This document shows, in pieces, positions 1,909-11,948 of a DNA stretch of 13,140 nt. A program made the position numbers and the translations under genes. The notes beneath the pieces are model-generated. The model ran no database searches. It had not been told where the DNA came from and saw nothing but the letters and a program-made list of their open reading frames with translations. Location: contig JBKHVI010000065.1 in NCBI GenBank assembly GCA_046570105.1, positions 1 through 13,140 of the forward strand, given 5' to 3'. Origin of the DNA: Bacteriovoracia bacterium (GTDB taxonomy: Bacteria; Bdellovibrionota; Bacteriovoracia; Bacteriovoracales; Bacteriovoracaceae). Position 1 is the first letter of the stretch; every line of letters starts with the position of its first letter.

Positions 1909-2556
1909 TCAGAAGGGCAGATGAAAACCTAATTGGCCCTTATGAAAGAAAGGCTTCTTTCCATGGGTTGTCAGCCATTCAACAAAAGGTGGGGCGGGGG
2001 CCTTCCACATCTGCCACTGGTGGCGCTGTCCGATGTATTCAGTTACCAAGGCCAAGAAGTCTTCCTCGTGGCCATAGCTCAAATGAATAAGCCGCAAAAC
2101 GTCTTCATCTGCGAGATAGAGCTTCACTTTTTTCCCCTGAATTTCAACGGGTGCAATGGCAAAGCTCATACCCTGTGCCATCTCATCGGTGGGGTCGTGG
2201 CGAGGGGCATCGGGTTGGGTGAAATAGGGATGAAGTTTGATATCGCGCGACTCCCAAGCAATGCCCAGTTCGTGACGTTGTAACCAGCGCAAGAAGGCGC
2301 GGCCTTCGCCTAACTCTCTTTCCTCTTGAGCGCCGGAAGCCCGCCAGCCGCGATAGGCGCGGGTGAAGGAGACCTGTTTAGGCATCTTTCTTCTTAATAA
2401 CAGGAGGGCGGTGCGATCACCGGGCTTAGGTTGCCAGTGCTTGCCTTCGGCGTAGATAGAGCTGAATTCAATGACAGGTTTGGGCTGACAGGGCTGCAGA
2501 GGATCAAAGTCCCCGTAGGTATAAGTGGCCCGTCCATAGCGTAGTGTTTGCCTCAT
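1909..2556 (-). CDS. Hypothetical protein (215 aa), divergent from umuDC, C-terminus QLGFHLPF
   Basis: Longest ORF filling the gap, with promoter-like elements upstream. No family recognised and no SD. Confidence 0.72.
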   Translation of the reverse strand: MRQTLRYGRATYTYGDFDPLQPCQPKPVIEFSSIYAEGKHWQPKPGDRTALLLLRRKMPKQVSFTRAYRGWRASGAQEERELGEGRAFLRWLQRHELGIAWESRDIKLHPYFTQPDAPRHDPTDEMAQGMSFAIAPVEIQGKKVKLYLADEDVLRLIHLSYGHEEDFLALVTEYIGQRHQWQMWKAPAPPFVEWLTTHGKKPFFHKGQLGFHLPF

Positions 2557-2597
2557 TGAGGAGTATAACGACCAAGCCGGGGGAAAATTTTAATCAC

Positions 2598-2626
2598 TTG
2601 AATTATACGGAAAAGTTACGGATACT
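2598..2626 (+). promoter_or_regulatory. Putative sigma70 promoter of umuD'C
   Basis: TTGAAT(2598-2603)-N17-GATACT(2621-2626), followed by SD GAGGTG at 2634-2639 and ATG at 2644. Confidence 0.6.
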
Positions 2627-2631
2627 GTCAA
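2602..2631 (-). promoter_or_regulatory. Putative sigma70 promoter of the 215-aa orphan
   Basis: Perfect consensus hexamers TTGACA(2631-2626)-N18-TATAAT(2607-2602) on the minus strand. Confidence 0.7.
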
Positions 2632-2643
2632 GCGAGGTGTAAA

Positions 2644-3000
2644 ATGCGTGTCGCTGGTTTTCCGTCCCCCGCTGATGAATATGGACTCGTCAGCCTTTCT
2701 CTCACCGAACTGATGATTCCCCGTCCGACGAGCACTTTTTTTATCCGCGTAGTGGAGGATCTGGCGCCCAATATTAAGCGCCAAGATATTCTGGTGGTGG
2801 ATCGTTCCTTGAAAATCACCGAAGGCTGTCTAGCCTTGATCGTGAATCAGGGTGAGTTGTGTTTGCGGCGGGCCCAGCACAAGAATAATGAGTGGTGGCT
2901 TGTTTCTTTAACTCAAGGGGCGCCCTTGCGCTTAGGCGATGAGGAAGAAGCGATTTTATGGGGAGTGGTGACCTATGTTATCCATCAAACCCTCAAGTAG
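2644..3000 (+). CDS. umuD: UmuD'-like S24-family accessory subunit, armless and predicted catalytically dead
   Basis: AGFPSPADEY, P-T-S-T-F-F-I-R-V, DILVVDRS and C-terminal WGVVTYVIH align with UmuD. GDSM is replaced by EDLA and the catalytic Lys by Arg. Overlaps umuC. Confidence 0.88.
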   Translation: MRVAGFPSPADEYGLVSLSLTELMIPRPTSTFFIRVVEDLAPNIKRQDILVVDRSLKITEGCLALIVNQGELCLRRAQHKNNEWWLVSLTQGAPLRLGDEEEAILWGVVTYVIHQTLK

Positions 3001-4291
3001 TCGCTGGGCGATTCTTGATTGCAACTCCTTCTATTGCTCTTGCGAGCGCCTCTTTCGTCCGCATTTGCGCCACAAACCGATTGTGGTGCTCTCTAATAAT
3101 GATGGCTGCATGATCAGTGTCAGTCATGAAGCGAAAGCACTGGGTTTGAAGCTCGGCGCTCCCGTCCATGAAGTGCGTGAAATCATCCGCCGTCATCGTG
3201 TGCAGGTGTTCTCTTCTAATTATCAGCTCTACGGGGATCTCTCTCGCCGCGTGATGCGCATCCTCGATGAGCTGCATCCCGATGTTATGCAGTATTCAAT
3301 TGATGAAGCCTTTATCGATTTCTCCCATGTGCCCTTGGGCGAAGAAGAGAGTTGGGCCGATTATGTCTGTCGCAAAGTCACGCGGGACACCGGCATTCCT
3401 GTCACTATTGGCATTGGCCCGTCTAAGACGCTCGCCAAGATTGCCAGTCGCAAGGCCAAAAAAGAAAATCGTCGTGCGCTCGGTTTACTTTCTCTCGAGC
3501 AGATTGATGATTGTTTGGCAGTCACGAGTGTCGAAGATATTTGGGGGATTGGTTACGGCTCGGCTTTGAAGCTTAAAAATATTTATCTGCGAACCGCTAA
3601 GGATTTTCGTGACTACAGTAACACCGCCTTAATTCGCTCTTTATTAACAGTCACAGGCGAGCGCATCCGCGATGAGCTGCGAGGTATTGACTGCATTGAG
3701 CCCGGTGAAATGAGTGAGAAAAAAATGATCACCAGCACGCGCTCCTTTGGAAAGCGCGTTTATGATCGTCGTGAGCTAGAAGAAGCGGTGGCGACCTATG
3801 TGGGCTTTGCTTGTGAAAAACTGCGGGCGCAAAACAGTGTGGCGCGTGGCCTAAGTGTCATGCTGAGAACCAATCCGTTTGATGAGAAGGCCAATTACTA
3901 TCGCAACGATGCTCAAACATTTCTCACCGTCGCCAGTAGCGATACCGGAGTCTTCACAGAAAAAGCTTTAGAGCTGGTACGCGGACTTTATCGCGCGGGG
4001 CTTGCTTATAAAAAGGCAGGGGTGTTTCTCTTTGAGATTACTCCTCGTCATGAGCAGCAACTGGATCTCTTCGCGCCTGAACTGCCTGACCGTCATGGCC
4101 TCATGCAGGCGATGGATGTGATCAATAAAAGATGGGGGCGAGGCACTATTCGCATGGCCGCTACCGGCACCACTGCGGATTGGCGGATGCTTTCAGAGAG
4201 TCGCTCCAACAAAACTCAGCTGGCCTGGAACGATTTAGTTGAAATCAAATCTGAGCGTACTAGAGTCCCTCATTCACGCTCAAGTCATTAA
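2975..4291 (+). CDS. umuC: Y-family DNA polymerase, Pol V catalytic subunit UmuC-like
   Basis: DCNSFYCSCE, VVLSNNDGC, FSSNYQLYGDLSRRVM, YSIDEAF, TKTLAK-like SKTLAKIA, STRSFG, YKKAGV, clamp motif QLDLF (4058-4072) and a DUF4113-like tail. GGAG SD at 2962-2965. Confidence 0.96.
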   Translation: MLSIKPSSSRWAILDCNSFYCSCERLFRPHLRHKPIVVLSNNDGCMISVSHEAKALGLKLGAPVHEVREIIRRHRVQVFSSNYQLYGDLSRRVMRILDELHPDVMQYSIDEAFIDFSHVPLGEEESWADYVCRKVTRDTGIPVTIGIGPSKTLAKIASRKAKKENRRALGLLSLEQIDDCLAVTSVEDIWGIGYGSALKLKNIYLRTAKDFRDYSNTALIRSLLTVTGERIRDELRGIDCIEPGEMSEKKMITSTRSFGKRVYDRRELEEAVATYVGFACEKLRAQNSVARGLSVMLRTNPFDEKANYYRNDAQTFLTVASSDTGVFTEKALELVRGLYRAGLAYKKAGVFLFEITPRHEQQLDLFAPELPDRHGLMQAMDVINKRWGRGTIRMAATGTTADWRMLSESRSNKTQLAWNDLVEIKSERTRVPHSRSSH

Positions 4292-4320
4292 AACTTAAGT
4301 GAGCTTTGGCCTTCGTAAAG

Positions 4321-8191: not shown

Positions 8192-8267
8192 TGGAGCGGG
8201 CGAAGAGATTCGAACTCTCGACCTTCACGATGGCAACGTGACGCTCTACCAACTGAGCTACACCCGC
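8192..8267 (-). tRNA. tRNA-Gly (GCC)
   Basis: 76 nt GCGGGTGTAGCTCAGTTGGTAGAGCG...TCACG-TTGCCAT-CGTGA...GTTCGAATC...CGCCCGCTCCA. Cloverleaf fold, U73 discriminator and encoded CCA. Confidence 0.98.
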
Positions 8268-10982: not shown

Positions 10983-11948
10983 TTATTCTTGTTCAGGAAT
11001 GTCGAGAACCACGTCGGCATCTGGAATCTCCAAGGCTTTGGGGGTTTCTTCTTTCTCTTCGCGCACTTTAAAGGCCTTGATGCGTTTAAGCACAAAAGAC
11101 TTATTCATTTTTGTAATCAGGCATACGCCATATAAAACTGGTCCACGCGGCATCGGAATGAGCGCAATCGGTTTCACTGGACGCCACTCTTCTTCGACGG
11201 TACCGCCGGTGTATTGAATATCCAGCGGAGTTTGGTTGCGAATAAAGTCGCGCATATCATCAAAGCGCGTCGGTACTTGGAAGGCCGCATCTTTTTTATA
11301 CTGGCCCATCGCCATGGTGAATGAGCGCTCTTTGAATTCAACTTGTTTATCTAGTGGGGTGCGCTCAATCAGTCCGGCCATGACTTTTAAGCAAGCAAAT
11401 GTATCTTCTAGCGCAATATGATGGTGAAGAGGCACTTTAAAAAATTCTGCCAGCGTGGAGAGTTTGTAGTTTGGTGGTGATTTTCCGGCCGCCTCTGATT
11501 CGGGATTCTTCATGAGTGCACGTGCAAATTTAGCGCTATCGAACACTCGCGTTGCGGGAGCAGTGATCAGAAAATCGTGAGAGCCTTTAATTAAAAAAGC
11601 AGAATCAAATAAAGCGTTATGGGCCAGTAAAGGAGCGCGGCCGACGAAATCCCAAAGTTGGCGCAACGGACGTTTGAGTGTCGGTGCATTTTTCACATCT
11701 TCATTAGTGAGGCCATGAATCTTGGCGTTCTCAGGAAGAATCTCAGTCATAGGATTGATGAGTTGATGAAAAATTTCGATTTCGCCTGATTGAGTGACCT
11801 TAACGGCAGCGATTTCAATAATGCGATCAACCAATGGGGAGAGCCCAGTGGTTTCAAGATCAATCGCGACTACACCATATGGAAAGACCTTCAAAAGCTG
11901 GGCCGCTTCGCTGGGAGTGACGTTGAGATCGGTGGAGGTCCTTGACAT
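10983..11948 (-). CDS. DEDDh (DnaQ-like) 3'-5' exonuclease with C-terminal WYL-like domain
   Basis: ExoI DLETTG, ExoII AHNALFD, ExoIII HHIALED. C-terminal IQY...RPVKP...LYGVC...KSFVLKRI and an acidic tail. Confidence 0.88.
   Translation of the reverse strand: MSRTSTDLNVTPSEAAQLLKVFPYGVVAIDLETTGLSPLVDRIIEIAAVKVTQSGEIEIFHQLINPMTEILPENAKIHGLTNEDVKNAPTLKRPLRQLWDFVGRAPLLAHNALFDSAFLIKGSHDFLITAPATRVFDSAKFARALMKNPESEAAGKSPPNYKLSTLAEFFKVPLHHHIALEDTFACLKVMAGLIERTPLDKQVEFKERSFTMAMGQYKKDAAFQVPTRFDDMRDFIRNQTPLDIQYTGGTVEEEWRPVKPIALIPMPRGPVLYGVCLITKMNKSFVLKRIKAFKVREEKEETPKALEIPDADVVLDIPEQE

Follow-up and report, generated by a model that had tools for sequence, protein, structure and literature searches.

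The window analysed here, a stretch of 13,140 nucleotides from a bacterium of the family Bacteriovoracaceae, carries a umuD'-like gene (2644-3000, forward strand) that overlaps umuC (2975-4291, forward strand) by 26 nt, as a preliminary description of this DNA had stated. The 118-residue product begins MRVAGFPSPA; its four-residue stub, M-R-V-A (2644-2655, forward), stands where the 24-residue removable arm of UmuD would be, and is followed by the intact GFPSPA arm of UmuD' and an S24 fold without the catalytic dyad. Solved E. coli UmuD' can be aligned to the protein from its first Gly, and Ala4-Gly5 is the retained Ala/Cys-Gly scissile bond. The open reading frame and its start are as first described, with only four residues before the Gly of E. 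coli UmuD'. The label then given to the protein, 'born-processed', is right about the missing arm but slightly too strong, because four residues still precede that Gly, whereas the phage protein HumD starts Met-Gly.

An overlooked arm is excluded by the upstream sequence. An in-frame TGA (2599-2601, forward) closes the frame, and no ATG, GTG or TTG lies between it and 2644, as previously claimed; independently, 8 congeneric loci have an in-frame stop upstream of the ATG, at a distance of 1-17 codons (a single codon in L010 and L011). A Shine-Dalgarno-like GAGGTG precedes the start (2634-2639, forward). Over 2336-4300 a contig from run X2 differs by 23 substitutions and shows no gaps, which rules out an assembly error for umuD'-umuC; together with the in-frame stops this contig led us to reject both a missed upstream start and a frameshifted arm.

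The catalytic dyad is missing as well. Where canonical UmuD reads G-D-S-M, the window protein reads E-D-L-A (2755-2766, forward), with the nucleophile Ser gone and two residues deleted nearby. Ser60 had been equated with Leu40; the loss of Ser holds, because residues 31-54 contain no Ser at all, but the column shifts with the alignment among Leu40, Asp39 and a two-residue gap. The pairing of Lys97, the general base, with Arg75 (2866-2868, forward) recurred in every alignment, and this position is invariant in 23/23 clade sequences. The Peptidase_S24 profile, proposed earlier as a check, matches the product above its cut-off (E 4.4e-10); the UmuD models of NCBIfam and PHROGs also match it, with a score below the NCBIfam cut-offs for UmuD and HumD, and its predicted structure is a beta-rich fold (pLDDT 78).

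Upstream lies a divergent gene for a 215-aa protein of no known family (1909-2556, reverse strand). The window also encodes a small secreted-looking protein (1438-1863, reverse) with repeated Cys-containing units C..[LF].G..YD.CK, a tRNA-Gly(GCC) (8192-8267, reverse) with no integrase alongside among the ORFs scanned, and an RNase T-type exonuclease (10983-11948, reverse) whose C-terminal part weakly matches WYL (E 0.006, below the cut-off); the operator described below was not found near the exonuclease gene. No signs of a mobile element were seen in the window, and the umuD'C operon adjoins the same chromosomal genes in most congeners. Apart from the window protein, LexA alone matches S24 in the genome, although at 88% completeness a further S24 gene could have been missed. 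The genome encodes RecA, ClpX, one DnaE, DinB and three Lon proteins, the three full-length lon genes of this 3-Mb genome lying at C38, C82 and C18 of G000. A search for an alternative mutasome returned only the one DnaE and two Y-family matches (DinB and the umuD'-linked UmuC), and another mutasome in this genome was thus rejected.

Relation to known polymerase subunits

Pol V is generally described as activated by UmuD cleavage, and phage HumD is the exception named (PMC7092418). The HumD proteins (P1 HumD, N15 gp26 and HK140 gp28) are likewise encoded without a removable arm and have an S24 fold, and so set a precedent; P1 HumD complements UmuD' (GenBank note; PMC7092418), P1 humD has an annotated LexA site (GenBank note), and the N15 and HK140 forms also lack the Ser, as the window protein does. 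However, HumD proteins have no stub before the Gly, keep the Lys (P1 HumD also shows Asp-Ser) and carry a C-terminal extension, and their genes are phage genes with no umuC within 1.5 kb, whereas the window protein has a four-residue stub, neither Ser nor Lys and no extension, and its gene is chromosomal with its own umuC. Identity to the HumD proteins is 30-31%, and the score against NCBIfam NF051876 is 58.7 against a cut-off of 120.

The E. coli UmuD/UmuC pair has in common with the window the fold, the GFPSPA arm, the umuC overlap, a repressor operator in the promoter (a candidate one in the window) and the catalytic motifs of UmuC, to which stretches resembling the clamp and RecA-like motifs can be added by eye. 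E. coli UmuD differs in having both the 24-residue arm and the Ser/Lys dyad, the E. coli operon has a different operator, and the UmuC tail in the window is altered relative to E. coli. With neither dyad nor arm, the window protein would have no self-cleavage, no checkpoint form and no arm degrons, unlike its E. coli counterpart. Judged by its sequence, it is neither a canonical UmuD (no arm, no dyad) nor a HumD (score, stub, no extension, own umuC), and we infer that it would work like UmuD' and phage HumD.

A short uncleaved stub is also present in E. coli UmuD 18, from which residues 1-17 have been removed and which is physically UmuD'-like (PMC5342242). UmuD 18 is engineered, however, with a seven-residue stub and an intact active site, whereas the window form is natural, with a four-residue stub and no dyad. 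In B. subtilis, YqjW-YqjX and UvrX-YolD are further cases of a Y-family polymerase that has a small accessory subunit, and models place the N-terminal arm of this subunit inside the polymerase (PMC12926913, PMC6511836), but YqjX/YolD constitute a separate family, modelled as a monomer and not derived from S24, unlike the window subunit.

Loss of arm and dyad in the clade and across the family

In a protein search, 22 clusters of 116-119 aa had 59-95% identity, and a gap separated them from longer proteins. Arm and dyad were both missing in 23/23 aligned clade proteins and both present in 95 of the 98 remaining matches listed. Of 10 congeneric genomes, 8 carry the same short form immediately ahead of umuC; in G008 the short form is another defective one, and the tenth genome yielded no match. 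Across the clade the stub is kept as M-[RK]-[VI]-[AT], with synonymous codon changes, over a saturated synonymous distance.

Selection was estimated from 36 pairs, most g1 pairs being saturated and not used. Three unsaturated, non-overlapping pairs gave umuD' dN/dS values of 0.063, 0.082 and 0.064, compared with 0.04-0.06 for umuC and 0.01-0.19 for 11 pairs of intact umuD. The preliminary description had considered a decaying gene, with dN/dS near 1 and close orthologues that keep arm and dyad; instead, close orthologues also lack both, and a dN/dS of 0.06-0.08 rejects decay for the window's clade. That the gene is decaying or an annotation artefact is hardly conceivable: the lost conserved residues and the scores below the NCBIfam UmuD and HumD cut-offs would fit such an origin, but the protein is also fixed in length across the 22 clusters, its operator, Shine-Dalgarno sequence and umuC overlap are conserved, and the independent contig is gap-free.

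Across the family, umuC was found in 158/237 genomes. To cover genera, we took 100 of the 150 listed umuC places and added 18 further loci, and 115 of the resulting 118 have a UmuD-like gene upstream of umuC; dropping three loci open at their left edge left 112 scored. Ser-Met and Lys are both present in 69 of these and one or both are missing in 43. An arm of at most eight residues was found in 33/43 dyad-defective loci but in 1/69 intact ones, which bears out the expectation that arm loss and Ser/Lys loss go together. The other defective loci have longer arms (5) or unassigned ones (5, with L059 a contig-edge fragment), and two intact loci are unassigned. Scoring was strict, and the status of L032 and L036 is uncertain: both retain Ser and Lys, but the Ser is part of a Ser-Leu pair and the bond is Pro-Gly.

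Departures of other kinds were also seen. L105 and L108 combine a defective dyad and a long arm with an adjacent UmuC that lacks its C-terminal tail; a g77 subclade (L041, L046, L049, L056) has lost the GF..P arm of the subunit as well but keeps umuC; and L022, L023 and L061 have no UmuD-like gene in the ~1.1 kb upstream of umuC, the umuC of L022 and L023 forming the sister group to that of the window. In L016, L017, L020 and most intact UmuD proteins of the family, C-G-L-F-G-I-S-E-D and not A-G-F-P-S-P-A follows the cleavage site, and the dyad is intact.

The residues at the scissile position bear on whether the stub might be cut in trans, by LexA or another protease acting at the Ala-Gly, so that the proteolytic step would survive. 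Ala-Gly is present at the stub junction in 9/9 genus loci, and intermolecular cutting is known among UmuD-like proteins (PMC5342242). We nevertheless find this improbable, as the junction is Thr-Gly in 3 of the 23 clade proteins counted and Thr-Gly, Pro-Gly, Ser-Arg or Met-Ser in other dyad-defective lineages, and a seven-residue arm is described as too short for cutting (PMC5342242).

In a tree of UmuC (117 rows), the defective forms do not all group together. Nine rows make up the window's clade (support 100) and 21 rows a g77/g70/G008 clade (support 99); g11 forms are nested among intact ones (support 99), and L015, L065 and L101 are examples of defective rows that stand alone. A single origin of the defective form was rejected (AU p 0.0002) using 37 rows (12 defective, 25 intact) chosen after the tree had been seen, and the starred branches force at least 4 changes; the tree is one of UmuC, and transfer of the cassette between genera is likely. 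Purifying selection is evident in unsaturated g77 and g11 pairs too (dN/dS 0.09, 0.24 and 0.05). On our reading, the family has undergone this simplification several times.

Beyond the clade, 28 of 127 single-domain representatives lack both residues and 6 have an arm of at most eight residues, in a sample that comprises the proteins nearest to the clade profile and is biased towards short or defective forms. P0222, P0228, P0265 and P0353 are further armless, dyad-defective UmuD-like proteins, two of which start Met-Gly or Met-Ala. Others, among them P0217-P0221, P0224 and P0225, are 234-301 aa long with two UmuD domains per chain, in some of which the dyad is missing from the first domain but kept in the second; possibly these are single-chain UmuD dimers.

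A candidate LexA operator

Upstream of umuD' lies a candidate LexA operator, the direct repeat ATACGGA-AAAG-TTACGGA with a period of 11 (2605-2622, forward). It fills the spacer of a candidate sigma-70 promoter, TTGAAT-N17-GATACT (2598-2626, forward, 8/12), which fell below the threshold of the sigma-70 scan and was not reported there. A promoter of the form TTG..-N16/17-.AT..T with the repeat in its spacer is present in 9/9 genus loci, and its -10 ends only 17-19 nt before the ATG, so the transcript has no room for an arm. A perfect divergent promoter, TTGACA-N18-TATAAT (2602-2631, reverse), has the same operator in its spacer and occurs in only 3/9 genus loci.

Within the window alone the repeat does not stand out from chance, being matched in 43 of 200 shuffles, so the evidence for it is its distribution. 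The upstream consensus is TTACG[GC]A-N4-TTACG[GC]A. If no more than one mismatch is allowed, the 3.0-Mb genome has four sites, at lexA (two), recA and umuD'. A matrix built without the window locus, from 37 umuD sites elsewhere, ranks umuD', lexA, dinB, recA and lexA on top; column-shuffled matrices also find 0-4 genome sites scoring higher than the level exceeded by 5 real ones, and the case for the operator therefore rests on where the sites lie and not on their number. The repeat precedes lexA in 30/30 family loci fetched, against 0/119 control windows, recA in 9/9 genus loci, umuD in 95/112 loci, and lexA in 4/20 loci from other families of the phylum; it was seen at L122-L151, L182-L190, L195, L199, L203 and L213. 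The core SOS genes given in PMC8565304 coincide with the repeat-bearing lexA, recA, dinB and umuD'. The dyad and Ala-Gly of LexA are intact in 30/30 family proteins, the genome's own LexA being cleavable by sequence. These patterns make the TTACG[GC]A repeat a candidate operator of a shared SOS regulon of lexA, recA, dinB and umuD'C, and apparently one that has not been described before.

The candidate has partial likenesses to known boxes. The LexA box of Alphaproteobacteria, GTTC-N7-GTTC, is likewise a direct repeat of period 11, and that of Bdellovibrio bacteriovorus, TTAC-N3-GTAA, shares the TTAC half-site but is a palindrome (PMC8565304), whereas the candidate in the window is a direct repeat. 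The Bdellovibrio palindrome was itself rejected as the operator, as it precedes 1/30 family lexA genes and occurs at 0/26 loci in a second set. GTTCGG direct repeats of the alphaproteobacterial type precede lexA in L201 and L204, from two other families, and several f6 and f11 loci have, by eye, a CCATAC...GTATGG palindrome instead.

Base 6 of the umuD operator varies with the recognition helix of LexA. Counted over 19 loci from 17 genomes, it was G 16, T 4 and C 0 times where the helix has Asp, and C 17, T 1 and G 0 times where it has Arg, Lys or Thr. The covariation is broken at the lexA promoter in L133 and L142, and may reflect one event between two LexA clades.

These results divide the earlier proposal that, with the arm lost, control had moved to transcription or to a partner protein. 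Transcription is supported by the conserved LexA-type operator in the promoter spacer, but not as something acquired: the operator also precedes intact umuD in 61/69 loci, so transcriptional control was not newly gained, and one layer of control was lost. For a partner protein we found no support. The divergent 215-aa product might take over the regulatory role of the arm, since its gene shares the operator region and has the perfect promoter in the window, is confined to genera g1, g77 and g46 (52/237 genomes), two of which carry dyad-defective subunits, and encodes a conserved C-terminal G-Q-L-G-F, which we take to resemble a clamp-binding motif. Such a partner is very improbable, however, because the three genera are close kin (LexA 77-88% identical), the gene was not found in g11, g5 and g52, which also carry short defective forms, and in 2 genus genomes another gene lies between it and the operator; with the operator at 0/21 unlinked copies, the gene was also rejected as an SOS partner. 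The 215-aa protein has no Pfam, NCBIfam or PHROG family, its atlas matches are under 0.9, its model is confident (pLDDT 90) yet has no Foldseek match and a best Z of 3.5, and it shows no similarity to P1 Lxr. It probably lies outside the umuD'C system.

UmuC and the proposed regulation of an uncleaved Pol V

The 438-aa UmuC has unchanged catalytic motifs (DCNSFY, YSIDEAF), a QLDLF clamp-type motif and a stretch like the N-terminus of the genome's own RecA (both recognised by eye only), and a DUF4113 tail. Within this tail S-N-K-T-Q-L (4205-4222, forward) replaces the usual S-x-R-[YF]-T-T, a change specific to the window's clade: SNKTQL-type tails occur in 9/9 clade UmuC proteins, while 105/108 others match the aromatic form. 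Modelled together with two subunits, UmuC gave a score of 0.78, compared with 0.54 for the best control, although resemblance to known parts of Pol V may be behind it; the mark is reached by 116/157 solved and 2/215 mismatched pairs. Model runs share at least 80% of contacts, and partner pLDDT is at least 77. One subunit is predicted to bind via its barrel and the UmuC tail and the other via residues 3-23, with stub residue 3 in modelled contact with UmuC. The published model of E. coli Pol V likewise has one UmuD' copy bound by its barrel and the other by its N-terminal arm (PMC11791011). As a textbook pair can pass by likeness, our model shows compatibility only.

We consider it likely that the window encodes a chromosomal Pol V that operates without the self-cleavage step and is gated by LexA repression, probably with RecA as cofactor. 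On the motif evidence, LexA bound to the direct repeat between -35 and -10 would repress umuD'C together with lexA, recA and dinB. LexA proteins are established to cleave themselves on RecA activation; DNA damage would thus yield active RecA, LexA self-cleavage and transcription of the operon. The short subunit, never cleaved, would then dimerise and bind UmuC directly, and RecA would still activate the polymerase as a cofactor through the RecA-like motif of UmuC. We propose that the protease site of the subunit eroded because nothing was left to cut. What would be lost is the delay seen in E. coli, the UmuD2C checkpoint form and the Lon/ClpXP signals borne by the arm, whose roles in E. coli are set out in PMC5342242 and PMC8460599.

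[quoted passage not shown] The conserved four-residue stub may therefore damp polymerase activity. Taken further, an uncleavable stub and an altered UmuC tail might together make a permanently low-activity or more accurate enzyme, with a governor in place of the timer. The stub's conservation at the protein level over a saturated synonymous distance, its modelled contact with UmuC, the restriction of the tail change to the window's clade and the low mutagenesis of UmuD 18 (PMC5342242) are all consistent with such an enzyme; yet stubs of 1-8 residues coexist with an ordinary UmuC tail in other lineages, and the catalytic motifs of UmuC are intact. We regard a damped enzyme as rather unlikely, and favour a Pol V relieved of cleavage and controlled through LexA.

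In the literature searched (main texts, with few subscription journals), we found no report joining UmuD and Bacteriovorax, nor one on the clade or the operator; supplements to Y-family or LexA surveys could list such cases. Chromosomal operons that have their own UmuC and have lost the cleavage step repeatedly under purifying selection would make the role of the timer and the checkpoint form directly testable. Natural cleavage-free pairs of subunit and polymerase would also be useful for structural work on Pol V, the whole structure of which is unsolved according to a 2025 paper, and the candidate operator delimits a compact SOS regulon for a predatory family, with covariation between residue and base.

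A bolder reading, to which we give slightly less than an even chance, is that predators of the Bacteriovoracaceae type repeatedly dropped RecA-triggered Pol V cleavage, in four separate lineages at a minimum and possibly in eight or more, by an ordered path: the arm was shortened, the dyad eroded, and the tail of UmuC was adjusted to suit a fixed stub. A direct-repeat LexA operator not described before would be left as the only gate at the level of the gene. If this is true, the family would offer a natural series in which the proteolytic timer proves dispensable, and LexA, through its Asp/Arg switch, would hold a one-residue code for operator base 6.
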